From: Polyangiaceae bacterium
Lineage (GTDB): Bacteria; Myxococcota_A; Polyangia; Polyangiales; Polyangiaceae
Assembly: GCA_050304295.1 (NCBI GenBank)
Contig: JBNLDK010000070.1
Location: 1-42,838 of the forward strand
Length of the DNA: 42,838 bases
Direction of reading: 5' to 3'
The position numbers were made by a program, and so were the translations under genes. The notes beneath the pieces were generated by a model that had not been told where the DNA came from, did no database searches, and worked only from the letters and a program-made list of their open reading frames with translations. Shown here piece after piece: positions 40 to 31,300 of the stretch (position 1 is the first letter of the stretch; each line of letters begins with the position of its first letter).

Positions 40-81
40 GGCCCCCAACCCGCTCGCGTGATGGGCAACCGCGGCCACCCA

Positions 82-11535: not shown

Positions 11536-11572
11536 GCCGAGCAGGGTAGCCGACTCGACGCGCGACCGCGAG

Positions 11573-16886: not shown

Positions 16887-19181
16887 TCAGCCCGCGCGAA
16901 GTTCCCCGAGACCCAGCTCCTGGACCTTCTCGATCAGTCCTTGCAGCCTCGACTGCTGGTCGGGAGTCGCCGCCACCATCAACTTGCCGAGCACCGCCGA
17001 CAGCGTCAGGCTCTGGATCTCGCCTGCCGAGAGCGCGGGTCGCGAGAGGATCTCCTTGAGATCCTGGCTCAGGCTCGAGTCGCCAGCGAGGTAGTCCTTC
17101 AGCACTTGCCGCGCCGTCTGACTGCTGTCGACGAAGCCGTCGATGCTCTGCCCCACGCTCACGGCCTTGATGAAGCGGTCGAAGAACTGACCGTCACCAC
17201 CGACGAGCTGCACCTTCGCGTTACCCAGGGCCTTGCCCATGACCTCGGCCTGGTGCCCAGCGACATCCTTGGCCACGCGAATCCGAGACAGCTCGATCTC
17301 CTTGTCCGCCTCCAGGCGGATGCGGAACTCCTCGTGCTCGCGGGCCGTGCCCTCCATCGCCTTGAGAGCGGCGGCTTTCTCGTGCAGACCCGCAGCCTCG
17401 GCGAGCAGTTTCTCGCGGGTCGCGGTGGCCTCGGCCTGCCCCTGCTTCTCGACCGCCACCGCGTCGGCCTCCTTGACCCGGGCCTGGGCGAGCCCCTGCT
17501 GCTCGGCGCCGGCGGCCTCGGCCAGGAGCTTCTCTCGTGTCGCCACGGCTTCCGCCTGGCCCTTCCTCTCGGCGCCGGCCGCTTCGGCGAGAAGCTTCTC
17601 CCGCGTCGCGACCGCCTCCGCCTGCCCCTGCTTCTCGATCGCCCCCGCTTCGGCTTCCCGGACCTTCACCCGCGCGAGCCCTTGCCGTTCCTCGCCGGCC
17701 GCCTGCGCCTGCATCGTCTCCAGGGTGACCCGCGCCTGCGCCAGGCCCTCCTTCTCGATCGCCTGTGCGTTGGCCTCCTTGACGGTGACCTCGGCGAGCC
17801 CCTTCGCCGCCTCCTCGGCCTTGACGCCATCGGCCAGGCGGATCTTCGCCTTGGCGTGCTTGTCGGACGCCTCGAGCGTCGCGTCGGCCTCGACGATCTT
17901 CTGTCGGGCGTGGAACTTCGCCGCCTCTTCCTGAGCCTCGGCGGCCTTGAGCATCTTCACGAGCTGCTCCTGCGCCTCGGCCTCCGCCATGATCCGCACC
18001 ACATCCTTGTTCCGGGTAGCCTCGGACACGGCGCGCAGGTCCTTGATCCGCTCCTCCTCCTCGGCCACCGTCCGATCGACGGCCACCCGGGTGCGCACCA
18101 CATCGGCGATCGCCTTCTTCTCGACCTCGATCGCCTTCTCCTTCTCGATGCGCTGCAGCTCCACCTCGCGCTCACGCGCGATGATCTCGAGCCCCTTCTC
18201 CTTCTCGACGCGCTCCCCTTCGACGGCGACGACGCGTTGCCTACCCCACTGCGCCACCTCCACCTGGCGCTGCTTGTTCTCGTCGGCGATCGCAATCTCC
18301 TCGTCCGACTTGATCCGCGCCAGTTCCGCCTTGCGGCGCTCCTCCGCCTGCACGCGGAGCGTCTCGGCCTGCTCGCGCGCCTGCATGGTGGCGATCTCGC
18401 GCCCCTGCTTCGCCTTCGCGTCCGCCTCCTGCCGCTGCAGCTCGAGGATCGCCTCCTCCGCCTCGACGTTCTGCTTGGTGATGATCTTGCGCTCGTTCTG
18501 CTGGTGATCGTTGGTGAGCACGTTCTGGGCCGCCGTCAGCTCCGTGATCTTGCGGATCCCCTGCGCATCGAGGATGTTCTTCGGGTCGTGGTCCTTGAGC
18601 GGGGTCTGCTCGAGGTAGTCGATCGCCGCGTCTTCGAGAACGAACCCGTTCAGGTCCTTGCCGATGACCTCGATGATCTGGTCGCGGAAGCTCTCCCGTT
18701 CCTTGTACAGCTCCTCGAACTCGAGTCGCTTGCCCACGGTCTTGAGCGCCTCGGAGAACTTCGCGGTGAAGAGCTCCTCGAGCGCGGCGTGCTTGCTGGC
18801 GCGCGCGCACCCGATGGACTGCGCGACCTTGAGCACGTCCTCCTGGGTCTTGTTGACGCGCACGAAGAACGCCACCTTGATGTCCGCGCGGACATTGTCC
18901 TTGCAGATCAGCCCGTCCGCCCCTCGGCGATCGATGTCGATGGTCTTGACCGAGATGTCCATGTACTCGGCGCGGTGAACCACGGGCAGCACCAGCGCCC
19001 CGGTGAAGGTCACGATGGGCTCAGCCGTCATCTTGTTCACGATGAGCGCCGTGCCCTGATCCACCTTGCGGTAGAACTTCCCGAGCAGAACGAGGAACCC
19101 AACCAAGACGAGGACCACGAACCCCGCCACCGAGCCGATCAGGATCAGGTTCTGATCGTCGAATAACCCCTCACCGCCCAT
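16887..19181 (-). CDS. SPFH/band-7 flotillin-family protein (YqiK/FloT-like) with a long Ala/Glu-rich coiled-coil.
   Basis: N-terminal TM LILIGSVAGFVVLVLVGFLVLL, then an SPFH core (ALIVNKMTAEPIVTFTGALVLPVVHRAEYMDISVKTIDI...). The ATG at 19181 has a GGAGGAG RBS 6 nt upstream, whereas the track start at 19202 has none. Internal near-duplicate 66-bp repeats encode GQAEAVATREKLLAEAAGAE twice. Confidence 0.85.
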   Translation of the reverse strand: MGGEGLFDDQNLILIGSVAGFVVLVLVGFLVLLGKFYRKVDQGTALIVNKMTAEPIVTFTGALVLPVVHRAEYMDISVKTIDIDRRGADGLICKDNVRADIKVAFFVRVNKTQEDVLKVAQSIGCARASKHAALEELFTAKFSEALKTVGKRLEFEELYKERESFRDQIIEVIGKDLNGFVLEDAAIDYLEQTPLKDHDPKNILDAQGIRKITELTAAQNVLTNDHQQNERKIITKQNVEAEEAILELQRQEADAKAKQGREIATMQAREQAETLRVQAEERRKAELARIKSDEEIAIADENKQRQVEVAQWGRQRVVAVEGERVEKEKGLEIIAREREVELQRIEKEKAIEVEKKAIADVVRTRVAVDRTVAEEEERIKDLRAVSEATRNKDVVRIMAEAEAQEQLVKMLKAAEAQEEAAKFHARQKIVEADATLEASDKHAKAKIRLADGVKAEEAAKGLAEVTVKEANAQAIEKEGLAQARVTLETMQAQAAGEERQGLARVKVREAEAGAIEKQGQAEAVATREKLLAEAAGAERKGQAEAVATREKLLAEAAGAEQQGLAQARVKEADAVAVEKQGQAEATATREKLLAEAAGLHEKAAALKAMEGTAREHEEFRIRLEADKEIELSRIRVAKDVAGHQAEVMGKALGNAKVQLVGGDGQFFDRFIKAVSVGQSIDGFVDSSQTARQVLKDYLAGDSSLSQDLKEILSRPALSAGEIQSLTLSAVLGKLMVAATPDQQSRLQGLIEKVQELGLGELRAG

Positions 19182-19383
19182 GCTGCTCCTCCGTGCTGGC
19201 ATCCCGCCATGGCAGGACGACCCTCGTTCCTCGGGGCACCCCGCTCCCGAGCCAGGCGGAGACTAGTGCGGGGACCGCGATGGAGCGACCAAAAAGCAGC
19301 GAGGAGGCACGCGGCGCTCCGCGGCGTGGCTGTGGACGAGGTCAGGCCGGTTGTCGCGCTCTTCTGCCACCGGAGCGTCGGCG

Positions 19384-20112
19384 CTACTCCTTGTTCCCCA
19401 GCATCGGGTCGAGGGGCTCCACCAGGTACGCCTCGCGCTGCTCGTCGTAGCCGATGATCAAGGCCCGGTCGCCGCGGCCGAGCTTCCCGGGTTCGGCACG
19501 GACCGCCAGGATGAGCCCAGCCCCGCCATCCTCCAACTGAGCCTGGCCGAAACCCTCGTCGACCCTGCCCGTGCTGACCACACAGACTTGACCCACGAAG
19601 TCGCGGCGCCGCTTCGCCGCCTGAATCTGGAATAGCTGGCCCAGGGGGCGCGTGACGACGCTGGCGATCGGTAGCGCCAGCACCAGCGCCACGAGGAGTA
19701 CCACGATCCCGCCCACCCAGATCGGGCCTGGGACCAGCGGCGCGAGGTAGCGAGACCCCACGAAGGACAGCACGAACCCCGCCGCCACGAGCACGCTCCC
19801 CACCACCGTCGCCGGGGCGTGACGGAGGCTGAGCGCCGAGAGCAGCCCAGTCAATCCCCCCCCAGTCGCGCTCCCGCCCGCGACCGCACCCTCGACCGCT
19901 CCCTCTGCGACCGCCTCCGCAGCCGCCTCCCCGAGCGCCTCGGCGGCCCCTTCCGCCGCAGCCTCGGCGGCGCCCTCTGCGGCCCCTTCGAAGAGACCGT
20001 CGAGGTCCACCGCTCCCACGATCACCAGCAGCCAGTACAGCACCGCCAGCACCAGACCGATCGTGAACACGATGGTGGGAAAACCGAGAACGATGGCGAT
20101 GAACTCCGACAT
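19384..20112 (-). CDS. NfeD/YqiJ-like membrane protein (N-terminal TM segments plus C-terminal OB-fold), the usual flotillin operon partner.
   Basis: MSEFIAIVLGFPTIVFTIGLVLAVLYWLLVIVGAVDLDG..., then a C-terminal beta-rich region VGQVCVVSTGRVDEGFGQAQLEDGGAGLILAVRAEPGKLGRGDRALIIGYDEQREAYLVEP. It sits immediately upstream of the flotillin gene on the same strand, the arrangement seen in yqiJK and yuaF-floT. Confidence 0.65.
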   Translation of the reverse strand: MSEFIAIVLGFPTIVFTIGLVLAVLYWLLVIVGAVDLDGLFEGAAEGAAEAAAEGAAEALGEAAAEAVAEGAVEGAVAGGSATGGGLTGLLSALSLRHAPATVVGSVLVAAGFVLSFVGSRYLAPLVPGPIWVGGIVVLLVALVLALPIASVVTRPLGQLFQIQAAKRRRDFVGQVCVVSTGRVDEGFGQAQLEDGGAGLILAVRAEPGKLGRGDRALIIGYDEQREAYLVEPLDPMLGNKE

Positions 20113-20270: not shown

Positions 20271-21884
20271 CTACGGCGCCGTCGGTTCGGGGCGCCGCCG
20301 CTCTCGCCGGCGCGCCGGGCGCGCGCGCGGCACCCAGATCTCGTTCGGGCGAATCGCCATGCCCGCGCGGGTATGCCCGTGGTCGCTGGTGAACAGACTC
20401 CCGTCGCGTCGATAGTGGCGCCGGATGAGCGGACGGAGCGGGACAACGTGCGCGCTGTCGCCGAGAAGGATGGTCTGGTAGTGGTGACCTTTGATCTTGG
20501 CGGTGATGTCGTCGAGCATCGCGTCCTGGATGTCGTCGTTGCCCGTCTTGAGCACGTCGCGGATCGCCATATTGTGAGCCGACGTCTCGCCGTGCCCCGC
20601 GAGCTGGGCGTAGTGTCCCGTCCCCGGGCTGAACACGGGACCCGGCAGGGTCCTCAACTTGGCGAGGGCCGCCGCCACCGCCTGGCGGTCCTCGGTCGTG
20701 GGACGGACTCGCTCGTGCCGGAGATGGAGCAGGCCCAACGCGACGAGGACCGCCACATGGCAGACAGCCAGTGCTCGGGAGCGCCAGCGCTCGTCATCTC
20801 GCGTGGAAAACCAACCGATCAACAATCCCGCCAGCAGCGCGTCGGCGGCAAAGGCGGGAATGAGCACGTTCACCCAGCCGTCGGTGTGCAACATGGAGAC
20901 GTAGCCCGAGACGTTGCCCATCAACCAGAGCCCGCCGTACAGAACCGTCTTCGCCCAGCCGCGACCGGTCGTGATCGGGGCGGCGAGCGCGGCCACCGCC
21001 AGCACGCCATGGATCCCCACCGTTGACCAGAAGTGCCTGAGGAGGAACCGATGCCACTCGTTCCAGCGCCATTCGTGCTGACGCGGCGCCTCGAACACGT
21101 AGAACCAGAACCATCCGTCGGTGGCGGCCTCCAGAGCAACCAGCGCCGCCAACCCCACGAGCAGCGCCGCCAGCGCCAGCGCGAAGAATCGGCGCCGATC
21201 CGCGAACAGCGTGTAGCCGATCGGAGCCAGCGCCAGCAGGAACGCTTGCTGCTTGGTGAAGCACGCGGCCACTAGCAGCAACCCCGCGACCACGGCCGAC
21301 GACAACCCGCGCCGGAACCTGACGAGCCAGCACGCCCCCAGGACCAGCACCAGCATCAGCGTGTCGACCCGCGCGAGCCCGAACCAGAGCTCGGTGGCGG
21401 GAAACGTCGCGACGAACAGGACGACCGAGATCAACCCCGCCCACCAGCAGTGCGTCTCCCGACGCACGAAGTCGAAGAGCACCAGGAGCGACAGCCCCCA
21501 GGCGAGGACCGCCACCCCGCGCAACGCCGGAAGCCCGACCCCGACGAAACGCGCTGCAAGCGCCGAGACCCAGTAGTAGAGCGGCGGGTAGATGTAGGGC
21601 ACGAACTCGGCCCGGGGCGCCACGTACAGAGGCTGGCCCGCCACCACGCGCGCGACGTGGTCGACCATCGCGCCCTCCATCCACTCGATCTCGTACGGGT
21701 ACTGCACGCGAGTCACCGTGGTCACCGCCACCGCGATCAGGACGCGGATACCCACGTAGAGCGCGACCACGCGGAAACCGAGCTCGACCCAGCTCGTCAG
21801 CGTGCGGGGCGAGCGGGGCAGGAACTCGTCGATGCGGCGCATCACCCACGCAGTACTCACGCCGGTCAGCTCTAGCGGGTCCAC
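20271..21884 (-). CDS. Polytopic GT-C-fold membrane glycosyltransferase-like protein (ArnT/PMT-related superfamily).
   Basis: About 12 predicted TM helices. The first periplasmic loop carries the acidic YPYEIEWMEGAMVDH motif, and aromatic-rich loops follow. Start is GTG at 21884, or alternatively the ATG at 21842. Confidence 0.5.
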   Translation of the reverse strand: MDPLELTGVSTAWVMRRIDEFLPRSPRTLTSWVELGFRVVALYVGIRVLIAVAVTTVTRVQYPYEIEWMEGAMVDHVARVVAGQPLYVAPRAEFVPYIYPPLYYWVSALAARFVGVGLPALRGVAVLAWGLSLLVLFDFVRRETHCWWAGLISVVLFVATFPATELWFGLARVDTLMLVLVLGACWLVRFRRGLSSAVVAGLLLVAACFTKQQAFLLALAPIGYTLFADRRRFFALALAALLVGLAALVALEAATDGWFWFYVFEAPRQHEWRWNEWHRFLLRHFWSTVGIHGVLAVAALAAPITTGRGWAKTVLYGGLWLMGNVSGYVSMLHTDGWVNVLIPAFAADALLAGLLIGWFSTRDDERWRSRALAVCHVAVLVALGLLHLRHERVRPTTEDRQAVAAALAKLRTLPGPVFSPGTGHYAQLAGHGETSAHNMAIRDVLKTGNDDIQDAMLDDITAKIKGHHYQTILLGDSAHVVPLRPLIRRHYRRDGSLFTSDHGHTRAGMAIRPNEIWVPRARPARRRERRRPEPTAP

Positions 21885-21961
21885 CCCCTCGGCGCAACGC
21901 GCCAGCGTGACCGGTCGTCACCTCGAGCACGGGCCGCAGCGCGCGCGGCGTGACTCGCGGC

Positions 21962-23497
21962 CTACTCGAGCAGGTGGTCGTACACGCCGGTGTTCAGTTG
22001 CCAGATCAGCTTGAACCGCTCCGCGGAGAAGAGGGGACCGCGGATCACCGGTCGGAGCTTGTCGTAGTACTCGCGGAGCTTGGGGTCCTGGATCTGGTTC
22101 TGTCCCGTGCGCAGCGTCTCCAGATACCCCGGCGGCACGGGCCGACCATAGTGGGCGACACGCCACACCTTCCGGTGGGGCCAGTGCTCGTAGGTCACGT
22201 GGGCCAGCAAGGCGTCCGTCAGGTTCGCCAGATCGAGGATGTGCACATGGGGACCTGCCCCGAGCCCGGACAGCCCCGCGTTGCAATGCAGCTCCGCGAC
22301 CTTGCCAGCGTCAGCCATCTGCCGACCCTCCTGGTACCACCCGCTGCGCTTGAACCCGGTCCGGCGCAGGTTCGCCATGATCCCGGTGTTCTCGAGGTAC
22401 CAGTCACGCTCGTTGACAACTCCGCTCTCGGGCACCGCGGTCGGGCGGGGGTTCTCCCGGAACGGATTGTGGGGGGAGACGAGGATGACCAGCCCCAGTA
22501 CCGCTGCCATCCGCATCACTGCCGTTCGATCGGGCTGCTCGGGCACGTAGCTGGTCAGCAGACACACCGCACCCACCAGCGGCAAGCTGAGGAAACGCCC
22601 CGCCATGAAGTCGCCCGCCACCCAGGCGACGTACGCGAGCTGGAGCAAGATCCCGAGCGCCAGCAGCCGTCGCCCCCAGTCCCGGTGACTCCAGCCGGTC
22701 GCGATCCCCGCACCGATCAGCAGACCTGTCAGCGGATCCCGCTCGAGAGAATCGAGCAGGTAGATGAGGCCCTGGGCGATCATCGTGCCCTTCGGGATGT
22801 CTACGTTGAGCTTGGCGAGCGCCGTGTTGGGGATCAGAAACCCGTAGTAGACGAGAGAGAAGAGTTCCCAGGCGATGATCGGCGAGAGTCCGATGAGAGC
22901 GAGGCGCAGGGAACGACGCCAGGCCAGCTTCGTCCACAGGTAGGCGAGCGCCGGGATCGCGATGAGCGCACTGTCGAGGCGGTTGACGAACATCAGACCG
23001 CCCAGCAGCCAGGCCCACTGAGCGTACCGAATACGCCAGTCGGGGACGAGATAGATCGCCAGAAACCCAATCAGCAACAGGTGGCTCAGCGGGTTCTCCA
23101 GGCCGCTGGTCGAGAAGTCCGCGTAGGACTGGGTGAAGGCCAACGCGACGAGGGCCAGCGCCGCCACGGCACCATCGCGTGCGACTCGGTAGGAGAAAAC
23201 GAGCGCACCCGCCAGCGCGACCACCAGCGATGTCCCCACACAGCTCCAGTACGGCTGGCGAACGAAGGCGTGGGTCACACTGACCAGGAACACCCACAGC
23301 GGGTTGGTGAACCCCTGGACCCGCTCGTCAGGGTTGAAGGTCAACCCGTAGCCGCCCACGAAGTTGTCGACCACGCGCATGCTGATGAACGCGTCGTCGC
23401 ACATCCACGCGCGGCGCGTGACGATCAGGACGAAGGCGACGAGCCCCAGCACGCGGAGGGTATTGCGATCGAAGCCGAGGTCCTGGTCCTGCCGCAT
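21962..23497 (-). CDS. Polytopic GT-C-fold membrane glycosyltransferase-like protein with a DD-containing first loop.
   Basis: MRQDQDLGFDRNTLRVLGLVAFVLIVTRRAWMCDDAFISMRVVDNF..., with many TM helices. The track ORF starts at a TTG (23602). The first ATG is at 23497, so the start is uncertain. Confidence 0.45.
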   Translation of the reverse strand: MRQDQDLGFDRNTLRVLGLVAFVLIVTRRAWMCDDAFISMRVVDNFVGGYGLTFNPDERVQGFTNPLWVFLVSVTHAFVRQPYWSCVGTSLVVALAGALVFSYRVARDGAVAALALVALAFTQSYADFSTSGLENPLSHLLLIGFLAIYLVPDWRIRYAQWAWLLGGLMFVNRLDSALIAIPALAYLWTKLAWRRSLRLALIGLSPIIAWELFSLVYYGFLIPNTALAKLNVDIPKGTMIAQGLIYLLDSLERDPLTGLLIGAGIATGWSHRDWGRRLLALGILLQLAYVAWVAGDFMAGRFLSLPLVGAVCLLTSYVPEQPDRTAVMRMAAVLGLVILVSPHNPFRENPRPTAVPESGVVNERDWYLENTGIMANLRRTGFKRSGWYQEGRQMADAGKVAELHCNAGLSGLGAGPHVHILDLANLTDALLAHVTYEHWPHRKVWRVAHYGRPVPPGYLETLRTGQNQIQDPKLREYYDKLRPVIRGPLFSAERFKLIWQLNTGVYDHLLE

Positions 23498-23805
23498 GAC
23501 GATTCGAGTTGGGAGTACACCATCCCCGCAACCAACCTCAAGCGAACAAGCTCCGACGCCCAGCGCGCAGTTCCCTTCGGCACATCCCGAATTGGGTGAC
23601 AAGTTCCCGCTCCGACAGCGAAAATCGCCGCCCCAGCGCCATCGCCCCCGTTCTGGGCGCCTGCCGCAGCGTCGACTGGATTCGGTCAGTGGCGCGCCGC
23701 GGCCGGGGTCGGCCGCGCATTTCTTCCGCAGCGGACGACCGAGTCACCTCGTGCCACGGCGGCGACGTCGACCCAAGGGCCCGCCACCGCGGCGATCCCC
23801 GGGGC

Positions 23806-24312
23806 TCACTTCCCGTCTGGCGGGTTCACGCGGCACGAGAGCACATCGGCAACCCAAGCGGGGTCCGCCCGGTTGAAGGGCTCGTCGCGAAACCGGACCT
23901 GAAGGTCCGCGGCCTGCTCGACCAAGCGCACGCGACAGGTCGCCGTGAAGCGCTTCTGCGACCGCCGACCCGGTCCCTGGAGGTACTCGACCAGTGCCGG
24001 GTCCTGGAAGAGCCCGGCAGCGAAGAAGAGCTCACGCCCCACCGTGACGACGGGCACGATCGGACGATCGATGGAAGGGAGGCGGCGACCATCGGCGGCG
24101 TGCGCGCACCGATGGGTCCCGTAGACGCGGTCGGACGCGCAGCTGAGCTTGCTCGCATCAATGGGCACGAGCGTGAACTCTGCCTTGACCATTCCCCCCG
24201 CGTGCGGCGGCCGACCGCGGTAGAAAAAGCCCGCAACGGCAAGTCCGATCCCAACCAGAACGAGCCCCCAGTCCCATGCGGCCTGGCGCGCGGACCCCTG
24301 GATCCCCGCCAT
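23806..24312 (-). CDS. Small (about 168 aa) membrane-anchored protein of unknown function, translationally coupled to the upstream PMT gene.
   Basis: Its ATG overlaps the PMT TGA stop (TGATG). Signal-anchor WDWGLVLVGIGLAVAGFFY. Third-codon positions are strongly GC-biased, which supports real coding. The 289-aa track ORF was trimmed because its 5' part overlaps the PMT gene. Confidence 0.45.
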   Translation of the reverse strand: MAGIQGSARQAAWDWGLVLVGIGLAVAGFFYRGRPPHAGGMVKAEFTLVPIDASKLSCASDRVYGTHRCAHAADGRRLPSIDRPIVPVVTVGRELFFAAGLFQDPALVEYLQGPGRRSQKRFTATCRVRLVEQAADLQVRFRDEPFNRADPAWVADVLSCRVNPPDGK

Positions 24313-25667
24313 CAGCGCCAGCTCCGCATCCAGAGACGGGCCTCGAGGCCCTCCTGGGTGAGGGGGATTCGCGACCAGACTGGACTGTAGAACGCCCCCA
24401 CGTCCAGGGCGACGAGGAGGAAGATCAGGGCGAGACGCTTCCGGCGTTCCGCCACCCACGAGACAATGCCAGCCAGCAGGATCACCCCGAGCGCGTAGCA
24501 AGGGAGGTAGTGGTAGATGTAGGGATCCCGTCGGGTCAGCACCCAGGGCGACAGGAATGAGAGCCAACCGACGAGCAACAGCAGGATGCCAAACCCGTGA
24601 GTGGACCAGAGTCCCGTGCCCTCGGGAGTAGCGTGGGCCCGACGCTGGGCCACGGTATGGCGCACCCCATACCAAGCTACCCCACCGAGGGACCCCACGA
24701 CGGCCAGTGAGGTCACGTACCAGGTGAACGGATTGCCGAGGGTCGTCGCGAGGCGGACCGCGTCACGAGAACCGGAGCGCGTGATGACGAGCGGCTTGAG
24801 CGCAACCAGCCAGGTAGGCCAGCTCGAGGTCAGCGGGTGATCCATCTTCGTGGCCGAAGCGTGCTGCAAAGCGAGCCGGCGCGTTTCGGAGAGCGCCGTC
24901 CAGACGTCGGCAGTCTCCCCGGTCAGGGTGAGTCCAAGCCACCAGGGAAAGAGAAACCCCAGGGCATACGCGAGCCCGACGCCGCCGATCGCCATCCCCC
25001 GGCGCCGCGCCGAGAAAGGCGCCAGCCACAGCGCAAAGGCGATCGGCCCCAGCGTGGCCACGCCGGAGATCTTGATGTTGGTCGCCAGCCCCGCCAGCAA
25101 CCCCGCCACGATGAACGTCCAGACCCGCGGACGCAAGGCCACGAGGAGGATCGCCCCCATGGCCAGGGCGACGAGCTGACCGTCGATCAGACCGGTGCGG
25201 GAGTAGGCGATGAGGAATCCGTCCGCGGAGAGCAGACCCATCGCCACCCACGGCGCCAGGCGCCCCGGGAACAGACGTCGGGCCAGAGCGGCACCACAGA
25301 GCAGGATCGAGATACCCGCGATGAGCCCCGGCAGTCGCCAGGCGAACGAGCTATCGCCCAGCAGGTAGAGGCTCGCCGCGATCGTCAGCTTGCCGAGGGG
25401 CGGATGGTCGTTCCAGTCGTCCTTGCCCTGCAGGTAGTTGCGAGCATTCTCGACGAAGTGGTGCTCGTCGAAGGTGAGCGCGTCGGGTGCGCCGAGCGCC
25501 TGCACGCGCAGCACCACGCCCATGACAACCAGTAGCAAGCAGACGACAACCACCGGCGACGGGAGCCAGTCCCACGCCGAACCAGTCGTGCGGGGCCGAG
25601 CGCCGGACGCGTCGGGCTCTTCTCGGGGGTCTTCTCCACCCTCGGCGCGCTCGGGTTCCTGCGACAC
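24312..25667 (-). CDS. Protein O-mannosyltransferase-like glycosyltransferase (GT39/PMT family, GT-C fold).
   Basis: Diagnostic PMT loop-1 motifs LTFDEHHFVENARNYLQGKDDW and HPPLGKL, about 11 TM helices, and a cytoplasmic acidic N-terminus. Confidence 0.75.
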   Translation of the reverse strand: MSQEPERAEGGEDPREEPDASGARPRTTGSAWDWLPSPVVVVCLLLVVMGVVLRVQALGAPDALTFDEHHFVENARNYLQGKDDWNDHPPLGKLTIAASLYLLGDSSFAWRLPGLIAGISILLCGAALARRLFPGRLAPWVAMGLLSADGFLIAYSRTGLIDGQLVALAMGAILLVALRPRVWTFIVAGLLAGLATNIKISGVATLGPIAFALWLAPFSARRRGMAIGGVGLAYALGFLFPWWLGLTLTGETADVWTALSETRRLALQHASATKMDHPLTSSWPTWLVALKPLVITRSGSRDAVRLATTLGNPFTWYVTSLAVVGSLGGVAWYGVRHTVAQRRAHATPEGTGLWSTHGFGILLLLVGWLSFLSPWVLTRRDPYIYHYLPCYALGVILLAGIVSWVAERRKRLALIFLLVALDVGAFYSPVWSRIPLTQEGLEARLWMRSWR

Positions 25668-25702
25668 GGCCGCGCCCTTCTAACATGAGCCGGTAAGCCG
25701 CA

Positions 25703-25819
25703 CTAGAACACCGATCAGCTTGCCCGACGCGGAAAACACCTGTCTCCGGGCGCCAGCAGGGGCGAGACGCCCGGAGACAGGTGCTTCCCGCTGGCACTGC
25801 TGCCCTGTCGGTGTTCTAG
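25703..25819. promoter_or_regulatory. Nested inverted repeats in a divergent promoter region: an outer 12-bp perfect IR (ctagaacaccga/tcggtgttctag) encloses an inner 16-bp perfect IR (cacctgtctccgggcg/cgcccggagacaggtg) with a 15-nt spacer.
   Basis: Outer arms at 25703..25714 and 25808..25819. Inner arms at 25737..25752 and 25768..25783. The element lies between the PMT gene start (25667, minus) and the 25908 plus-strand gene. Confidence 0.6.
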
Positions 25820-25907
25820 GTCGTTGATTTGGAACAACAAACAACCGCTCCCCCTTGCGGTTGCGGTTGAGTCGTGCCTGGGGTCGAATCCTGGAGCCGC
25901 CTTCGCC

Positions 25908-28310
25908 ATGACGCGCGCCTCCCGAACCCGTGCCCCGACCGGAGGCGCCTCAGTCCACGCGCTCCCCGAGCCCCGCCGGGCCGTGGCGATCGGGATGGTC
26001 GCGGCGACGACGATCGTGCTGCAGATCGGGCTGACCCGGATTCTGAGCGTCGTCATCTGGTACCACTGGGCCTTCCTCGCGGTGTCGCTTGCCTTGCTCG
26101 GCATCGCGGCACCGGGGGTCTGGTTCTCACTGGTCACGCGCCGAGATCCTTGGCTGCCCCGCCTGCTGCTCCTGGCCGGGGTCACCGTCCCGGCGGGCGT
26201 CTTCGTCACGGTCCACGCGCCGGCGTGGGTCGGCGTGCAAGCGGCCCCCTGGCTGTGCCTGGCGGCGGCCCTCGTCGCCTTCCTGGCGCTCGGCGGAACC
26301 GCTTGCCTTCTGCTACTCTCGGCGCCGGGTGCCACGGTCGCTCGCCTTTACGCGGCAGACCTGGTGGGCGCGAGCGTCGGCGCCGCCGTCACCGTTCCGC
26401 TACTCTGGCTCGGCCCCACCCCCCTGGTCGTGGCGGCGCTGGGTCTGTTGCCCCTCGCGGCCCACACCACGCTCTGGCCGCGACGCTGGCTCGCGCCCGC
26501 GCTGATCGCAGTACCATCCCTGCTGGCGCTGACGATCGGAACCCCCTTCGAGGTCCATCACACGAAGACGTACAGCGAGATCGAGCCGGGTCGCGTCCCC
26601 CAGTACGAGCGCTGGTCCCCCACCGTCCGCGTCACGGTCTTCGACGACGTGTTCTGGACCTCCGCCCCGGGTGGCTTCCTCTGGGGCTCCGGTCGCGCTC
26701 GACGAGCAGGGACCGGGCCGCAGCAGTACTGGCTGGAGCAGGATGGATCGGCGGGCACGCCGATCACACGGTGGTCCGGCGATCCGACGGAGCTCGGGTA
26801 CCTCTTCGACGACGTCACGTCGATCGGCCACGAGCTGCGCCCCGGCCGCCGCGTGGCCATCATCGGCGCCGGGGGCGGCCGCGACGTGCTCGCGGCACTG
26901 GCGGCAAACGCGCGCCAGATCGATGCGATCGAGCTGCACGGTGTCATCCTCGAGACGGTGCGCGATCGGTACGGGGCGTTCTCGGGGCACCTCTACGACG
27001 ACCCGCGCGTCACACCCATCGTCGGCGAGGGTCGCCATGTGCTCAGCCAGAGCTCCACGCACTACGATCTGATCCAGATCTCGCTGATCGACAGCTGGTC
27101 GGCCACGACCGCGGGCGCCTACACCCTGGCGGAGAACCACCTGTACACGGTCGAGGCGTATCAGCTGTTCTGGTCGCGCCTGACGGACAGGGGGTTGCTC
27201 TCCACCAGCCGGTGGCTACGGGGTGACTTCGGGCTCGAAGTGCCGCGCCTCTTGCTACTCGTGCGCGCGGCGCTGGCGCGGGAAGGGGTCGCCAACCCCG
27301 CTGACCACGTCGCCGTCGTCCAGGGCGGGGCGGTGGGTACGGTGCTCGTTTCCCGTCTCCCCTTCGCTCCCGAGGAGTACGCCAAGCTGAACCGCATCGC
27401 CGCCAATCGGGGGTTCGTCGTGCACTTCCCCCCGGAAGCTGCCACCTCTGGCGACCGCCAGCTCGCGCAACTCTTCGCTCGAGGTCCGGAGGCACTCGCG
27501 GGCCAGGGCATCGACCTGACGCCCCCCACCGACGACCGGCCGTTCTTCTTCCAGGTGCTCTTGCCCTTCGATGAAGTGACGAGACCGACGGCCGTGAGCC
27601 TCGGGGTCAACAACGAAGGTGTGTGGACGCTCCGCCTGGTGATCACGATCGTGGTGGCAGCGGCACTGGGAATGCTACTTCTACCGTTTCTGTTCACGGA
27701 TCGCTTCGAGCGCCGCGGGCTATGGCGCGGGAGCGGCTTCTTCGCGTGCATCGGCTTCGGGTTCCTGCTGGTCGAGGTCACGTGGATCCAGAAGCTGGTG
27801 CTGCTGCTGGGCCACCCCAGCCGAGCCGCAACCGTAGTGCTGGGCGCGCTCCTGCTCGGCACTGGCCTCGGCTCCTTGGGAGCTCCGCACTTCGGTGTCG
27901 AGCGACTCCAGCGCTGGGGCTGGGCGACCGGCGTACTGATCCTCGGACTCACCCTCGGCGCCCGGCTCGCGCCGGCATTGCTCGCGTGGCCCGGTGGCGC
28001 GCTCGCGGCCGCTGCCGTGCTCGTCTTGCTGGTCGGCGGCATGACGATGGGGCCCTGGTTCGCGCTCGGGCTCGCCCGCTTCGGCGACGTCAACAAGCCC
28101 TGGTTCTGGGCGATCAACGGTGCGGCGAGCGTGGTGGCGGGCGCGGGCTCCCTCGCGGTCGCCATGCAGCTCGGGTACACTGTCGTCGGGTTGCTCGGCG
28201 CCGCCGCCTACGGTATCGCCTGGTGGTTGCTGCAGGGAGCGGCCCACGCCGAACCAGTCGAGGACGCCGCGAGCGTACCCGAGACGAGGCCACAGGCCCC
28301 CAGCAGCTGA
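25908..28310 (+). CDS. Polytopic membrane protein with an embedded spermidine/spermine-synthase-like (aminopropyltransferase-fold) domain.
   Basis: N-terminal and C-terminal TM bundles flank VAIIGAGGGRDV...IDAIELHGVI...DLIQISLIDSWSATTAGAYTLAENHLYT, which I read as an AdoMet-binding and spermidine-synthase-type signature. Start at the internal ATG at 25908. Confidence 0.6.
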   Translation: MTRASRTRAPTGGASVHALPEPRRAVAIGMVAATTIVLQIGLTRILSVVIWYHWAFLAVSLALLGIAAPGVWFSLVTRRDPWLPRLLLLAGVTVPAGVFVTVHAPAWVGVQAAPWLCLAAALVAFLALGGTACLLLLSAPGATVARLYAADLVGASVGAAVTVPLLWLGPTPLVVAALGLLPLAAHTTLWPRRWLAPALIAVPSLLALTIGTPFEVHHTKTYSEIEPGRVPQYERWSPTVRVTVFDDVFWTSAPGGFLWGSGRARRAGTGPQQYWLEQDGSAGTPITRWSGDPTELGYLFDDVTSIGHELRPGRRVAIIGAGGGRDVLAALAANARQIDAIELHGVILETVRDRYGAFSGHLYDDPRVTPIVGEGRHVLSQSSTHYDLIQISLIDSWSATTAGAYTLAENHLYTVEAYQLFWSRLTDRGLLSTSRWLRGDFGLEVPRLLLLVRAALAREGVANPADHVAVVQGGAVGTVLVSRLPFAPEEYAKLNRIAANRGFVVHFPPEAATSGDRQLAQLFARGPEALAGQGIDLTPPTDDRPFFFQVLLPFDEVTRPTAVSLGVNNEGVWTLRLVITIVVAAALGMLLLPFLFTDRFERRGLWRGSGFFACIGFGFLLVEVTWIQKLVLLLGHPSRAATVVLGALLLGTGLGSLGAPHFGVERLQRWGWATGVLILGLTLGARLAPALLAWPGGALAAAAVLVLLVGGMTMGPWFALGLARFGDVNKPWFWAINGAASVVAGAGSLAVAMQLGYTVVGLLGAAAYGIAWWLLQGAAHAEPVEDAASVPETRPQAPSS

Positions 28311-28397: not shown

Positions 28398-31300
28398 ATG
28401 CCGCGACCCGGTGACTCGCCTCGACGATCGATGTGGCGCGCCCTGCTCCGCTGGGCGCTCGTCACCGCGCTGATCGTGGCTGGCAGCCCACCCGCCGCCG
28501 CCCAGGAGCCCGATCCAGCGCCGGGTGACGTCCCGTCCCTGGTGGACCTGGAGGCGGATCCCGCGATCGAGTCCCTCCTCGGCCAGCGGGTGGCGCGTAT
28601 CGAGATCGTGGTCGAAGGTGAGGGCAGCGCCGCTCCGCCCGAGCTGCGGCGCGTGCTGGTGGGGGAGCCGCTCAGCGTGGAGATGAGCCAGCGGGCGATC
28701 GGTGAGCTGACGGACAGCGGGCGGTATTCCAGTGTGCGCGCCGCAGCCATCGCGACCCCGGACGGCGTGGTGCTAGAGCTCACCGCTGTGCGCCGCTACA
28801 TCGTCGAGCGGGTCAAGGTGCAGGGAGGCAAGCTCGACACTGGCCAGACGCTGCGCGCCGCCGAGATCCGTCCGGGGCAGGAGCTGTCGATTCGTGCCGT
28901 GCCACGACTCGAGAACGGTGTCGCCAGCTTCTACGCCCACCACGGGTATCCGAACGCGGCGGTCCACATCGAGCTTTTGGACACCGACGACCCGCTGCGC
29001 ACCGTCCTCGTGGTCCACGTCGAGCCGGGTCTCCCGCTGCGTGTCGAACGTCGCCGCTTCGAGCTGAGCCCCGACCCCGACGACCCGAGGGTGCTCGCGC
29101 TCGTCCGACGCTACTCGCTGCCCCGCGGCGACCGGGCCGATGAGGACCGCCTGAACGACGCCGACCGCGAGCTGGAGAACCGCCTCCGCGCCAGCGGCTG
29201 GCATCGTGCCCAGGTCGGTCACGAGGTGCGGCGGGTCGTCGGCTCCGACGTCGCCGCACTGACCGTCCGGGTCGCCGCCGGGCCCTCCTTCGAGATCCGC
29301 TTCGAAGGCAACCGCACCTTTGACGCGGCGCGCCTGCGGCAGGTGCTCGCGCTGGACAGGACCGAGGATCGAAGCCCGCTGACGCTCGTCGAGCGGCTCC
29401 GCGACCACTATGTCCGCCACGGCTTCTTCGATGTCGAGATCGAGGTCGAAGAGCGCGCGACCCCTGACGACGTGGTGCACGAGCTGTTCTTCGCGATCCG
29501 GGAGAACGGACAGGTGCGGGTCGCCGCGCGGGAGTACCCGTGCCTGACCGGCGACCGGACCCCCCGCGAGGTCGGTCAGGAGATCGACAGCTTTCTCGGT
29601 GAGGAGCTGCCCGGCACCAAGGTGTTCTCGTCGATGGACCCGGCCACCATCGACGCCCTCTACGGTCCCACCCAGAGAACCGGCGCCCGCCTGGCGCCCC
29701 CCTCGTTCAGCCCGTGGAGCACCTACGCGCCAGAGGTCTACGACCGCGCACGCAAGCACTTGCAAGATCTGTATCGCGCCGAAGGCTATCTGAGCGCGAC
29801 GGTGGGCCCGGTCCGGGTGATCCGCCGCGCGTGTGCGCCGCGTTCTCCACCCGGACAGTGCCTCCCCATCGGCCCGCGCGAGAGCCCGCCCGCCGTGTGC
29901 CGCTACGACGAGATCGGGGTCCCCATCAGCGAGCCCCAGCTGGACGGCAGCTGGACGTGCCAACCCGACCCTGCGCGCGGCCTGAAGTGCGAGCCCGAGG
30001 TCGTGCTCGTGATTCCCGTCAAGCTGGGCCCTCAGAGCATCCTCTACGACGTCCGCTTCGCTGGCAACGAGCGGCTGGCGGAGCAAGAGCTCGCCAAGAT
30101 TGCCCAGGTGAAGCTGGGCGATCCGGTCAGTCAGCCCGAGCTCGATCGCGCCACGCGACGACTGCTCGAGGCCTATGCCGAGGAGGGATTCGCCTTCACC
30201 TCCCTCGACGCCGCGCTCGAGCTCTCGCCGGATCGAACCCGGGCCCGTGTGACCTTCCGCATCAGCGAGAGCAATCGGGTCACGGTCCGCGACATCGTAA
30301 TCCGGGGTGCCCGCAAGACCAACGAGGGCGTGATCCGCCGGCGCATCGCCCTCCAGAAGGGGGAGCTTTACCGGCGCAGCGCGGTGCGCAAGACCGAAGA
30401 GCGGCTGGCCATTCTTGGCGTCTTCGCCTCCGTCACCGTGAGCCTCGAGTCACCGTACGTGCCGGCACGGGAGAAGGTCGTGGTGGTGACCGTGCAAGAG
30501 CGGGAACCCCAGTACCTCGACATCAAGGGCGGCTTCAGCTCGGGCGAGGGTCCCCGGGGAGCGCTCGAGTACGGGCACCGCAACCTGGGCGGCGGCGCGG
30601 TCCAGCTGCGCCTCCGAGCGGCACTGAACTACCTCCCGGACTTTCTCATTCTGGAGGACGACGTCAAAAAGAAGTTCCAGGAGCTGCAGCAGGACCAGGG
30701 CATCGGGGCGCGTCTGGAGCGGCAGATCTCGGCCTCGGTCGAGTTCCCCGACATCGGACTGGGACCGCTGTTCCGCCTCGGTGTCGAGGGACTGAGCGTG
30801 CGCGACAACTCTCGCGACTTTGGGATCAGCAAGAACGCCGGACTGGTCACCCTCATCTATCGCCCGACGAGAAGGATCACGGGACAGATTGGGCCCTCCC
30901 TCGAACTGAACGAGGCAGGGATCTTCGGCGAGGAGGAGAAGGGGGCACTTCAGGCATACCTCGTCACCAACCCCACACGCCGCAACCTGTTCCGCGTTCC
31001 CGAAGGCGAGACGGTCGCCTTCGCCCAGCAAGTGAGCGCCACCTGGGACCGCCGCGACAACCCCCTGGGGGCAACGCGGGGAACCTTCGTGAGCGCCCGG
31101 ATCGAGCACGTGCGGGCCACCCCCACCGATCAGCTGGACGAGCTGCTTCGGACCCGACCCGTGCGTGGCCAGTCGGACGAGGCCGACGTGTTCGACGCGA
31201 TCGTCAGCGACTTCGTCCGCGTCTCGAATCGACTCGCCGGGTACGTCCCTTTTGGGGACCGTGGCTTGGCGCTAGCACTCAGCGTCGGGTGGGGCGTCAA

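Follow-up and report, generated by a model that had tools for sequence, protein, structure and literature searches.

Eukaryotic PMTs use a MIR domain for acceptor recruitment or selection, mycobacterial Pmt relies on the Rv3212 beta-propeller, and C-terminal binding modules play this role in other GT-C enzymes. There is precedent for accessory subunits both in bacterial Pmt and in further GT-C enzymes (preprint 10.64898/2026.07.15.738315, PMC13041763), and for the mycobacterial Pmt (Rv1002c) an accessory complex of Rv0051, Rv3212 and Rv1209 has been proposed (preprint 10.64898/2026.07.15.738315). D74, R441 and Y444 are essential residues of MtPMT (PMC12331936). The view that the bacterial PMT family is characterised mainly in Actinobacteria, with which this locus was originally introduced, is not supported as stated: GT39 annotations are already widespread for homologues from other bacteria, and GT39 PMT homologues in more than 3,800 bacterial genomes are cited in PMC11727336. 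A second point of reference is mycobacterial AftB (GT89, PDB 9dlf), a terminal, retaining β-(1→2)-arabinofuranosyltransferase that depends on decaprenyl-phospho-arabinose and for which the donor-contacting and catalytic residues have been described in McAftB (PMC12041299).

The locus analyzed here lies in a stretch of 42,838 nucleotides (the 42.8-kb window) and consists of four genes in a probable myxobacterial operon, in the order PMT/GT39 homologue (PMT451), 168-aa single-TM protein, AftB-like GT-C and PMT_2-type GT-C (GT-C537; Table 1). Every sequence feature of the original prediction was found at the locus, with the refinements given below. With a probability of roughly 0.5, these genes encode a glycosylation module of the PMT type that works in the periplasm and includes a non-catalytic partner dedicated to it, and this module is facultatively joined to a decorating sub-module of the AftB-like enzyme and GT-C537. 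The host lineage appears to be diderm, as judged from a BamA in the window and Polyangiaceae-like relatives.

Table 1. Features of the locus and its surroundings (positions within the window).
Feature	Position	Strand	Length	Basis or remark
Four-gene locus	25667→20271	-		probable myxobacterial operon
GT-C537 ('YPYEIEWMEG' protein), PMT_2-type GT-C	20271..21884	-	537 aa	Pfam PMT_2
AftB-like GT-C ('DDAFI' protein)	21962..23497	-	511 aa	NCBIfam, PDB 9dlf
Gap between small gene and AftB-like gene	23498..23805	.	308 nt	gene calls
Small partner protein	23806..24312	-	168 aa	N-terminal TM helix + OB-like beta-barrel
PMT451, compact PMT/GT39-type GT-C	24312..25667	-	451 aa	Pfam PMT_4TMC, PMT_2, PMT
Nested inverted repeats, hairpin	25703..25819	.	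~117 nt	within PMT/SpeE-like intergenic region 25668..25907
Polytopic SpeE-like protein	25908..28310	+	800 aa	Pfam, NCBIfam, PDB
BamA-like Omp85 protein	28398..31784	+	1128 aa	POTRA 5.9e-44, Omp85 7e-29
NAGPA-like protein (sub-threshold)	31836..33428	+	530 aa	Pfam NAGPA 21.8 vs 25 bits

The PMT homologue

The assignment of PMT451 to the PMT/GT39 family, initially based on the motifs TFDEHHF...HPPLGK, is borne out by three Pfam models that all score above gathering (PMT_4TMC, 4e-22; PMT_2, 3.9e-10; PMT, 7e-9). The protein comprises a catalytic core and a C-terminal 4-TM module without a MIR domain. Searched against the PDB, its family profile retrieved yeast and fungal Pmt1/2/4 only (best E 3.4e-20) and aligned with both halves of these structures, while the MIR domain was skipped. 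DE, HPPLGK, R111 and R380..Y383 are conserved and correspond to the essential residues of MtPMT.

PMT451 would act at the periplasmic side of the inner membrane, where Ser/Thr of exported proteins would receive a hexose, with mannose as the most likely sugar and a polyprenyl-phosphate as its donor. It counts against this reading that a GT2/Ppm1-like synthase of polyprenyl-phosphate sugars is absent from the 42.8-kb window, as are flippase, DprE1/E2 and UbiA-type genes, and that no acceptor protein is evident. Alternatively, the PMT-like enzyme might modify a glycan or lipid (LPS/O-antigen, exopolysaccharide or a peptidoglycan-linked polymer) instead of proteins. The OB-like domain of the small protein would then bind an oligosaccharide and the AftB-like enzyme and GT-C537 would add further side-chain sugars, which would resemble periplasmic post-polymerisation glycosylation of the Gtr/GT136 type. 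This is rather unlikely, given that only true PMTs were matched in the PDB and that the PMT-specific C-terminal 4-TM module is kept together with the R..[YF]..HYLP motif. Moreover, Wzx/Wzy, an ABC transporter, an initiating transferase, GT2 and a flippase are absent from the window, and none of these recur in the inspected PMT loci.

A small membrane-anchored protein encoded next to PMT

The 168-aa protein is previously undescribed. Its gene is translationally coupled to that of PMT451 by the TGATG overlap noticed before, in which 1 nt is shared between the PMT stop codon TGA (24314..24312) and the start codon ATG (24312..24310) of the 168-aa ORF; its standing as the conserved partner of PMT had been overlooked. 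In the predicted fold (pLDDT 94.9), residues 8-31 form a TM helix and the remainder an OB-like beta-barrel, which carries four invariant cysteines (C58, C69, C126 and C160). Matches to OB-fold proteins are weak and include periplasmic NlpE and YgiW. The OB-like domain would be periplasmic; it counts against the model that the charges flanking the TM helix give an ambiguous orientation and that a crude count of TM segments yields 8 and 9 for the two fusion proteins described below.

PMT and the small protein form the widely conserved unit of the locus. Homologues of the small protein adjoin PMT in L084, L086, L089, L090 and L091 (PMT identity 44-77%). When 79 metagenome loci with PMT relatives of 32-77% identity were searched with an HMM of the small family, an adjacent member was found in 59; the count was 39 of 44 for loci flanked on either side by 600 nt or more, and 34 of 38 once these informative loci had been de-duplicated at 90%. 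The four remaining groups, in which no partner is nearby, count against a partnership. With respect to PMT, the small gene lies downstream in 29 cases, upstream on the same strand in 19 and divergently in 11, and a distant family member (P0390) is likewise followed by a PMT. Two Rosetta-stone fusions, P0347 and P0360, combine a PMT_2-type GT-C with two tandem C-terminal copies of the small domain, and P0347 is one called gene on a 429-kb contig. However, their GT-C parts are only distantly related to PMT451, which counts against a partnership. The small protein would be a dedicated non-catalytic partner that physically interacts with PMT. Its proposed place is above or next to the active site, where it would recruit acceptors or select among them, and it may in this manner help PMT to choose its targets.

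The tight and widespread adjacency fits an enzyme/substrate pair equally well as a complex. Conceivably, the small protein could thus be the dedicated acceptor substrate of PMT, i.e. a membrane-anchored periplasmic glycoprotein, and not a subunit. There is precedent for O-mannosyltransferases dedicated to specific proteins (TMEM260, PMC10214176), and a common Thr in 'TLVPxD' directly after the TM helix is invariant within a set of 14 sequences. Yet, D52 and the four cysteines are the sole invariant residues across 114 family members, with no Ser/Thr among them, and the OB-like domain is compactly folded without the S/T-rich linker that PMTs usually modify. In addition, the tandem C-terminal fusion to a GT-C corresponds to the position of binding modules in EmbC, AftD and ORF12 (PMC11127046) and not to that of substrates, which makes a substrate role unlikely.

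A facultative pair of GT-C enzymes and the neighboring genes

Both polytopic proteins encoded downstream are GT-C glycosyltransferases and not permeases according to their Pfam, NCBIfam and PDB matches. That the 'DDAFI' protein is an AftB homologue with the AftB donor-binding residues kept had escaped notice. In the database, the gene is called from M36 of the ORF onwards, which defines it as listed in Table 1. The protein matches 9dlf with an E of 1.4e-14 as a single sequence and 2.3e-44 as a family profile, for which AftB is the only PDB match, and it is also recognized by the NCBIfam model beta_arabfuran_tase (1.4e-15). The family-invariant D35, T64, E134, R173, T225 and R301 align with McAftB D62, T91, E172, R221, T274 and R372, and all six donor-contacting/catalytic residues of mycobacterial AftB are thereby kept. 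The family is large and spans many groups, including Chloroflexota, Zixibacteria, Myxococcota, Acidobacteriota, Ignavibacteria, Bacillota and CPR; its neighbors are heterogeneous and uninformative on the donor, and no DPA-pathway genes lie nearby.

GT-C537, which has no assigned family, matches PMT_2 (2.5e-7, 31.5 bits; cut-off 26.1) and, below the cut-off, GT87 (5.4e-4), while no PDB relative was found even by profile search. Its first-loop motif R..YP[YF][ED][IL]EWMEG..VD is invariant down to 28% identity, and its homologues adjoin AftB-like genes in L060, L080 and L111. Most likely, the two enzymes would decorate or extend a glycan, possibly in sequence. The AftB-like enzyme would draw on a polyprenyl-phosphate donor carrying a furanose-type sugar and transfer this sugar with retention, in the manner of AftB. 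The gap upstream of the AftB-like gene may harbor an internal promoter, for which weak consensus promoter/terminator matches only were detected. At this position L086 carries an opposite-strand GT2 gene plus a gene for a methyltransferase, of which no remnant was found in the gap here (nor does it match Rfam); in L084 the gap spans only 49 nt.

Across the divergent intergenic region, the perfect 16-bp inverted repeat (25737..25752 / 25768..25783) was confirmed and extends to 24-nt arms. It is enclosed by a second perfect repeat of 12 bp (25703..25714 / 25808..25819), and the nested repeats have a predicted folding energy of -81 kcal/mol (z = -8). L084 and L086 lack the hairpin in their homologous intergenic regions, and no credible Rfam family was found for it. 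The spermidine-synthase-like call for the adjacent gene is consistent but weak (Pfam 4e-4, below cut-off; NCBIfam 1.5e-5): twelve PDB structures of SpeE align with residues 313-432 (best E 1e-4), and hydropathy places the central Rossmann domain (~residues 310-435) between roughly seven N-terminal and six C-terminal hydrophobic segments. The gene is syntenic in L084, L086 and L092, lies 2 kb from PMT in the distant L110 and is absent from the remaining PMT loci; its link to the glycosylation module is uncertain.

The Omp85-family barrel suspected beyond the SpeE-like gene is BamA-like, and BamA has general housekeeping functions. TIGR03303 reaches 224 bits, below its cut-off of 297, and the gene is syntenic only in the close relatives L086 and L092. 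The adjacent 530-aa protein possesses one TM segment and a Ser/Ala/Pro/Gly-rich C-terminal tail, and its proposed identity as a NAGPA-like glycosidase falls short of the Pfam cut-off and lacks PDB support. Neither gene shows a tie to glycosylation, and both are bystanders of the module, as are an NfeD/flotillin-like pair and DUF3686.

These data bear on the model of the original prediction, i.e. one fixed envelope-glycoconjugate pathway with three GT-Cs in sequential lipid-linked transfers, assisted by the SpeE-like, Omp85 and NAGPA-like proteins. The synteny it implied is found in part: PMT, small, AftB-like, GT-C537 and divergent SpeE-like genes are kept together in L084/L085, L086 and L087, three close relatives that are independent of each other, and the full arrangement is syntenic in L092 as well. 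The distant L111 and L121 hold four and three of the operon families, respectively, and L110 has its SpeE-like gene 2 kb from PMT. The two sub-modules are linked in the close clade and in the distant L111 and L121; this amounts to 3 loci in 278 kb of flank examined, where ~0.05 would be expected assuming a 9-Mb genome with 1-2 copies. Yet, the row of three GT-Cs with the SpeE-like gene is conserved only among close relatives (AftB-like identity at least 71%), and most AftB-like and PMT loci are without it. Already at 60-63% identity, the AftB-like gene adjoins VKOR instead. Among 80 loci with AftB-like relatives of 34-43% identity, one has a PMT homologue within 10 kb and two an adjacent GT-C537 homologue; conversely, an AftB-like gene is near PMT in 3 of the 79 PMT-relative loci. 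Together with the housekeeping nature of BamA and the weak NAGPA and SpeE matches, this renders a fixed pathway quite improbable, and the favored reading treats the second sub-module as joined to the PMT pair only in some lineages.

Very improbable is a non-catalytic structural role of one downstream GT-C as a heterodimer partner of PMT, in the manner of mycobacterial Pmt with Rv0051, a GT87-like protein that is catalytically dead, or of Pmt1 with Pmt2: such a complex and Paenibacillus GT39-GT87 fusions are reported (preprint 10.64898/2026.07.15.738315) and GT-C537, co-operonic with PMT in this clade, weakly matches GT87, but its acidic first-loop motif is invariant even beside AftB-like genes without PMT nearby, the AftB-like protein retains each AftB catalytic and donor residue, and most PMT loci contain neither gene.

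Comparison with known systems

Like M. tuberculosis Rv1002c, PMT451 has a GT39 core without MIR, the DE motif, HPPL(G/A)K and R..Y..HYLP (PMC12331936), and in both cases a separately encoded periplasmic protein is proposed to cap or assist the active site (preprint 10.64898/2026.07.15.738315). PMT451 does not qualify as an equivalog of actinobacterial Pmt, scoring 27 bits where the model has its cut-off at 800, which makes orthology of function uncertain and counts against the favored reading; it also stems from an apparently diderm lineage. Mycobacterial Rv3212 is an eight-bladed beta-propeller, whereas the small protein consists of an OB-like barrel of ~130 residues with a TM anchor and is encoded adjacent to or coupled with PMT and not, as the mycobacterial locus numbers indicate, far from pmt. 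With eukaryotic Pmt1-Pmt2/POMT, PMT451 shares both transmembrane halves of the catalytic core and a luminal/periplasmic accessory domain proposed for acceptor handling; it differs in having no MIR beta-trefoil, the separate partner being no beta-trefoil either, and there is no sign of Pmt1-Pmt2-type dimerisation.

The AftB-like protein resembles AftB in its GT-C_A module, DD motif and all donor-contacting residues (PMC12041299), and the C-terminal periplasmic domain aligns in part. The two proteins are roughly 25-30% identical where they align, the score is 56 bits against an equivalog cut-off of 1050, and the family occurs in organisms without known arabinan synthesis; the acceptor must differ from that of AftB. 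GT-C537, P0347 and P0360 match PMT_2 as do ArnT/PMT_2-type GT-Cs (PF13231), from which GT-C537 is set apart by its own first-loop motif and by having no solved relative detectable by profile search. Compared with three-component systems (GtrA/B/*, GT136 pentofuranose), the GT-C families differ and a donor synthase/flippase is not in the window; the inserted small GT2 and methyltransferase genes of L086 are of note in this context. The locus would share with these systems a GT-C that uses a polyprenyl-phosphate sugar periplasmically, sometimes with an attached binding module (PMC11127046).

Gene content and the genes around the glycosyltransferases

Since the G+C content of the window is ~69%, lists of its open reading frames are full of spurious frames; genes were called from third-position GC (see table). 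The nearest named relatives are Polyangiaceae and Myxococcales, and housekeeping genes (Fpg, RpiA, an HtrA-like protease, PP2C, HemE and CcmE) as well as a giant Ser/Thr kinase with TPR repeats lie elsewhere in the window. Taken with the base composition, the relatives and this kinase are suggestive of Myxococcota. All elements listed in the original prediction, which had joined them into a single envelope glycoconjugate system, exist in the sequence. The observation is confirmed and its interpretation is supported in part. The components of the locus belong to known GT-C families that have already been annotated by homology.

Features of the locus and its surroundings, with positions in the window
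Feature	Position	Strand	Remark
Beta-helix protein, 988 aa	82..3048	minus	
Ser/Thr kinase, 1810 aa	2961..8393	plus	
Protein with C-terminal GH12 domain	11598..10306	minus	
DUF3686/AAA ATPase, 1770 aa	16885..11573	minus	
771-aa protein	19202..16887	minus	
242-aa protein	20112..19384	minus	
GT-C537, 537 aa	21884..20271	minus	
AftB-like, 511 aa	23497..21962	minus	database gene call begins at M36 of ORF
Gap, 308 nt			between small gene and AftB-like gene
Small protein, 168 aa	24312..23806	minus	
TGATG stop/start overlap	24314..24310	minus	as predicted
PMT homologue (PMT451), 451 aa	25667..24312	minus	
Nested inverted repeats (hairpin)	25703..25819		between divergent PMT and SpeE-like starts
SpeE-like, 800 aa	25908..28310	plus	divergent from PMT operon
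BamA-like Omp85, 1128 aa	28398..31784	plus	
NAGPA-like, 530 aa	31836..33428	plus	
SDR	33433..34371		

The three divergent genes fared differently. The predicted spermidine-synthase likeness of the first product is reproducible, but weak and below the Pfam and NCBIfam cut-offs (PF01564, 20.4 vs 22.9; NCBIfam SpeE equivalogs, 18–24 bits vs 250–540). Its PDB matches to SpeE (E ~1e-4) are restricted to the Rossmann core, and its nucleotide-binding loop reads, by eye, GAGGGRD; judged from these matches, the likeness to SpeE is at the fold level only. The anticipated Omp85-family barrel is BamA-like, with POTRA matches in four stretches (5.9e-44) followed by Omp85 (7e-29), while the BamA model TIGR03303 scores 224 bits, below its cut-off of 297. 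The protein is unusually long, and its best BamA-model stretches are found beyond about residue 534. The assignment of the third product as an NAGPA-like phosphodiester glycosidase is not supported, as PF09992 stays below threshold (21.8 vs 25 bits) and no PDB match supports it. The C-terminal end of this protein is a repetitive Ser/Ala/Pro/Gly tail (..PASSGAPASSGAPAGSSAPASSGAPAGSGAPASS..). Low-complexity Ser-rich stretches are typical targets of PMT O-mannosylation, and the tail, encoded 6 kb from the PMT gene, is hence a conceivable acceptor.

The 16-bp inverted repeat noted in the divergent promoter region is perfect, with arms that reach 24 nt. It is the inner part (16–24 bp) of nested perfect repeats with a 12-bp outer pair; all of them fold into one hairpin of ~117 nt (−81 kcal/mol, z = −8). 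This hairpin is specific to the contig. The idea that it is a conserved regulatory element or riboswitch was rejected, because it is missing from the homologous intergenic regions of the related loci L084 and L086 and no credible Rfam family matches; a MITE-like insertion and an operator are both conceivable. The window, L084 and L086 have in common a short sequence (..CTAGAAGGGCGC..) that closely precedes the PMT start.

Downstream of the glycosyltransferases, the 242-aa protein (three TM) resembles by eye an NfeD-like protein, and the 771-aa protein, with a single TM and a long Glu/Ala/Lys-rich coiled coil, a flotillin/SPFH-like protein; no Pfam model matches either of them. Their genes are connected by a stop/start overlap to that of the ATPase, which combines DUF3686, DUF7902 and AAA domains, and the three form a unit separate from the glycosylation module. 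PADLOC, applied to the downstream genes and the small protein, returned nothing meaningful; its one match, to mad8, is marginal. At the far end of the window, a right-handed beta-helix protein with polymorphic-outer-membrane-protein-type repeats is encoded beside the kinase with its extensive TPR repeats, both of which are typical of myxobacteria-like genomes.

The PMT homologue and its proposed four-cysteine partner

PMT451 contains the TFDEHHF...HPPLGK signature on which the original assignment was based, and PMT_4TMC, PMT_2 and PMT all match above their Pfam cut-offs. Its FDEHHF motif aligns with FDEVHF of Pmt1, and D67 and E68 are invariant among 26 family members, in which HPPLGK is conserved as well. 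PF16192, the C-terminal four-TM module, matches across the full profile length (4e-22). Also conserved are R111, which aligns to the Arg in ...VLMRFF... of Pmt1, and R380, Y383, H386, L388 and P389 of an R..[YF]..HYLP motif. The counterparts of R380 and Y383 are R441/Y444 in MtPMT, both essential, and R649/F652 in ScPmt1, of which F652 is the equivalent of Y444 (PMC12331936); here, the Arg and Phe of ...QRQMF... in Pmt1 were counted as R649 and F652 from the profile alignment. Searched against the PDB, the 26-member profile matches only Pmt1, Pmt2, Pmt4 and one fungal PMT (best E 3.4e-20), covering both the N-terminal catalytic and the C-terminal four-TM modules. The MIR beta-trefoil is lacking: PMT451 comprises only 451 aa, and the alignment skips Pmt1 residues ~252–553. 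Since actinobacterial Pmt is likewise devoid of a MIR domain (preprint 10.64898/2026.07.15.738315), this does not exclude GT39 membership. NF058602, the NCBIfam equivalog of characterised bacterial Pmt, reaches 27.2 bits vs a cut-off of 800, confined to the N-terminal 130 residues. Judged by architecture and motifs, PMT451 belongs to GT39, but to a distinct, uncharacterised clade. To our knowledge, bacterial protein O-mannosylation has been studied experimentally in Actinobacteria only. A PMT outside this phylum is not new in itself, as databases label such proteins 'glycosyltransferase family 39' or 'dolichyl-phosphate-mannose-protein mannosyltransferase' and GT39 genes are reported from >3,800 bacterial genomes (PMC11727336). 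One related contig (L121) carries two PMT paralogues ~2.7 kb apart (1..1239, minus; 3953..5257, plus), only one of which is flanked by small-family and AftB-like genes.

PMT451 would O-glycosylate exported proteins at the periplasmic face, using a polyprenyl-phosphate hexose as donor; the annotated genes of the window include no Ppm1-like gene. That the acceptor is instead a non-protein molecule is unlikely: the family profile matches only PMTs among solved structures, and the enzyme keeps the PMT-specific C-terminal module with its R..[YF]..HYLP motif.

The unit that is conserved around the enzyme consists of the PMT and the small protein, whose predicted start within the PMT stop codon is indeed present. 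In three loci with PMT identities of 62%, 49% and 44% (L089, L090 and L091), the other GT-Cs are absent, and in each of them a gene for a 150–172-aa protein touches the PMT gene, downstream with a 4-nt overlap in the first two and immediately upstream in the third. These proteins are homologous to the 168-aa protein of the window and have four cysteines in common with it. A profile of the seven closest family members, searched against 1.84 billion cluster representatives, yielded 338 hits with E ≤ 1e-3, of which 160 have E ≤ 1e-10; almost all of these proteins are 150–200 aa long. The small protein itself is matched by no model from Pfam, NCBIfam or PADLOC. Metagenome contigs were scanned with the PMT alignment, which gave 79 loci with PMT relatives of 32–77% identity, and all of their ORFs were searched with an HMM from 114 small-family members. 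A small-family gene adjoins the PMT in 59 of these 79 loci. The partner is found in 39/44 loci that have at least 600 nt on either side of the PMT, and in 34/38 informative groups once PMTs >90% identical are collapsed. It lies downstream on the same strand in 29 loci (gaps −33 to +86 nt), upstream on the same strand in 19 and divergently in 11. Conversely, directly after the gene of the distant family member P0390, on a contig of 919 bp, comes an ORF that starts with ...WDENHFVENARNFLAGKPDWNDHPPLGKL. That the two genes have stayed neighbours although their order and orientation changed repeatedly argues strongly for functional coupling of the PMT and the small protein.

The fold of the small protein, an OB-like barrel, was modelled with AF2 from the 114-sequence alignment (the seven-sequence alignment gave a pLDDT of 49.8). 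Natural fusions bear on its location. P0347 (802 aa), which is called as one gene on a contig of 429 kb, and P0360 (841 aa) consist of an N-terminal PMT_2-type GT-C, a soluble region and two tandem four-cysteine domains. Because the relationship of their GT-C parts to PMT451 is only distant, the fusions tie the domain to GT-Cs generally rather than specifically to the PMT451 clade. In solved GT-Cs, soluble domains at the C-terminus lie outside the cytoplasm and frequently bind the acceptor (PMC11127046). On this ground, and because of the invariant cysteines, the OB-like domain of the small protein is proposed to be periplasmic. Two further proteins, P0374 (649 aa) and P0394 (426 aa), carry the four-cysteine domain at the C-terminus of an amidohydrolase-domain and a trypsin-domain protein, respectively, and are candidate fusions or merged gene calls.

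The small OB-like protein would be a dedicated, non-catalytic partner of the PMT that handles the acceptor. Conceivably, it could also be a dedicated substrate of the enzyme, which would likewise keep the two genes together; with the domain occurring within GT-C polypeptides, such a role is unlikely. The conserved family of PMT neighbours to which the protein belongs appears to be undescribed in the literature searched, where neither PMT systems of myxobacteria nor AftB homologues outside Actinobacteria are described.

The AftB-like enzyme, GT-C537 and their linkage to the PMT

The predicted GT-C nature of the 'DDAFI' protein is borne out by matches to the NCBIfam model of the terminal beta-(1->2)-arabinofuranosyltransferase AftB (1.4e-15) and to solved AftB (9dlf, 1.4e-14). 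Searched against all PDB sequences, the profile of its family finds AftB as the sole match (E 2.3e-44); the alignment is split into three segments and takes in part of the C-terminal periplasmic domain. CDDAFI aligns with ADDGLI of the DD motif, and none of 20 members deviates at D34 or D35. The key residues of AftB are D62 of the DD motif, which is the catalytic nucleophile of McAftB at the tip of JM helix 1, and the donor-contact residues T91, E172, R221, T274 and R372 (PMC12041299). D35, T64, E134 (SGLENP), R173, T225 (PNT) and R301 (GDFMAGR) align to these positions in that order, and all six are invariant in the 20-member alignment (34–72% identity). This supports an AftB-like retaining mechanism and, as donor, a polyprenyl-phosphate sugar that closely resembles that of AftB. 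With 56.4 bits vs the cut-off of 1050 for the equivalog NF041481, the protein is a homologue and not an orthologue of AftB.

Relatives number >649 in the protein collection and at least 584 genomic stretches in species-representative genomes, from phyla including Chloroflexota, Zixibacteria, Myxococcota, Acidobacteriota, Ignavibacteria, Planctomycetota, Bacillota and CPR groups. Tandem paralogue pairs or arrays occur in several loci (L021, L038, L045, L049, L056 and L063, at ~position 10000) and are frequent in genomes of Chloroflexota, Acidobacteriota, Latescibacterota and Ignavibacteria. Like the PMT partner, the breadth and residue-level conservation of this family outside Actinobacteria appear to be undescribed in the literature searched. 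When 125 immediate neighbours of its members were surveyed with Pfam, there was no recurrent partner and no DprE1, UbiA or GT2, but there were occasional other GT-Cs (PMT_2 in 6, TMEM260-like in 2), sigma-70 and unrelated genes. Within the window, genes of the decaprenyl/undecaprenyl-phospho-arabinofuranose pathway (PRPP-dependent synthase, DprE1/E2-type epimerase) are likewise missing; the SDR is a generic PRK06197 oxidoreductase and not DprE2-like, and RpiA is ordinary housekeeping.

The 'YPYEIEWMEG' protein, GT-C537, is assigned by Pfam to PMT_2 (PF13231, 31.5 vs a cut-off of 26.1), with GT87 below threshold (PF09594, 20.2 vs 25). It has no solved relative in the PDB, a profile search included. 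Its first-loop motif R..YP[YF][ED][IL]EWMEG..VD is invariant down to 28% identity and is also kept in L060 and L080, where a GT-C537 homologue lies directly upstream of an AftB-like gene and the PMT is absent. Judged from this conservation, GT-C537 appears to be catalytically active, and the gene that recurs beside it is the AftB-like one.

The row of three GT-Cs, from which sequential sugar transfers had been predicted, is conserved in close relatives, but only within a narrow clade. L084/L085, L086 and L087 (AftB-like identities of 71%, 82% and 84%) keep the full arrangement of a SpeE-like gene divergent from PMT, small, AftB-like and GT-C537 genes, with component identities of 60–84%, and L086 also has BamA beside the SpeE-like gene. 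AftB-like relatives at 60–63% identity have a VKOR neighbour and no PMT nearby, and at 47% the context is another again. When the 80 best of at least 584 AftB-like loci (34–43% identity, ±10 kb) were checked with BLASTP, a PMT451 homologue was present in one and an adjacent GT-C537 homologue in two, and no SpeE-like or small-protein homologue was detected. At lower PMT identities, GT-C537-like, AftB-like, small and PMT genes occur within ~5 kb in L111 (39%), small, PMT and AftB-like genes in a row in L121 (36%), and a SpeE-like gene 2 kb from the PMT in L110 (38%). Three occurrences of AftB-like genes in 278 kb of PMT flank compare with ~0.05 expected if 1–2 copies per ~9-Mb genome are assumed. 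Linkage of the two sub-modules is therefore facultative but probably not accidental, and shared ancestry may contribute, because all these loci have ~67–68% G+C. The fixed six-gene pathway that was originally envisaged matches the close relatives and is improbable in view of the 80 loci and the variable flanks. In a facultative linkage, the AftB-like and GT-C537 enzymes would, wherever they occur, decorate the glycan or make it longer.

Two local variations may be mentioned. In L086, genes for a 194-aa GT2 and a 161-aa methyltransferase lie on the opposite strand between the small and AftB-like genes (6079..7308, 82% identity), and this GT2 is a candidate for a synthase that supplies the module with a polyprenyl-phosphate sugar. 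The 308-nt gap of the window falls exactly at this position, yet blastn and tblastx found no remnant of such an insert. In L081 (11580..12785) and L088 (2065..3273), both at 60–63% identity, the VKOR gene directly follows the AftB-like gene, in L081 together with a thioredoxin-like/AhpC-TSA gene, which hints at a link to periplasmic disulfide chemistry.

Proposed function and comparison with known systems

Taken together, the small proteins may constitute a family of obligate, non-catalytic periplasmic subunits of a widespread MIR-less PMT clade in diderms, which would select acceptors in trans and in some lineages be coupled to an AftB-type retaining furanosyltransferase. This reading is tentative, with a probability of roughly 0.3. 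If true, protein or envelope glycans with AftB-style terminal pentofuranose would exist outside Actinobacteria. It also bears on how MIR-less bacterial PMTs choose their substrates. The two-gene module of PMT and partner is compact and is found again in dozens of genomes of uncultured bacteria that are rich in GC and apparently diderm, and this compactness and recurrence, along with the natural fusion proteins, make the accessory-subunit idea directly testable. Mycobacterial AftB is a drug-target enzyme, and a very large multi-phylum AftB-like family that keeps every donor-contacting residue raises the question of which polyprenyl-phosphate furanose donors and acceptors are used beyond Corynebacteriales.

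Accessory subunits have been proposed for mycobacterial Pmt only recently, in a July 2026 preprint that reports its co-purification with three proteins, namely a GT87-like one that is catalytically dead, a DivIVA-like one and a periplasmic beta-propeller that was modelled above the active site, and that argues for an almost universal dependence of GT-Cs on protein partners (10.64898/2026.07.15.738315). AftB, in turn, requires the periplasmic FecB–Rv3035 complex (PMC13041763). The small protein is unrelated in fold to the partners of either enzyme; it is an OB-like barrel and not an Rv3212-like beta-propeller cap. A heterodimer of the PMT with a dead GT-C, modelled on the Rv0051-like GT87 partner, is highly improbable, since GT-C537 keeps invariant acidic loop residues whereas that partner is catalytically dead. 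For the PMT and its small partner, the likeness to the mycobacterial Pmt holo-complex is a functional analogy only.
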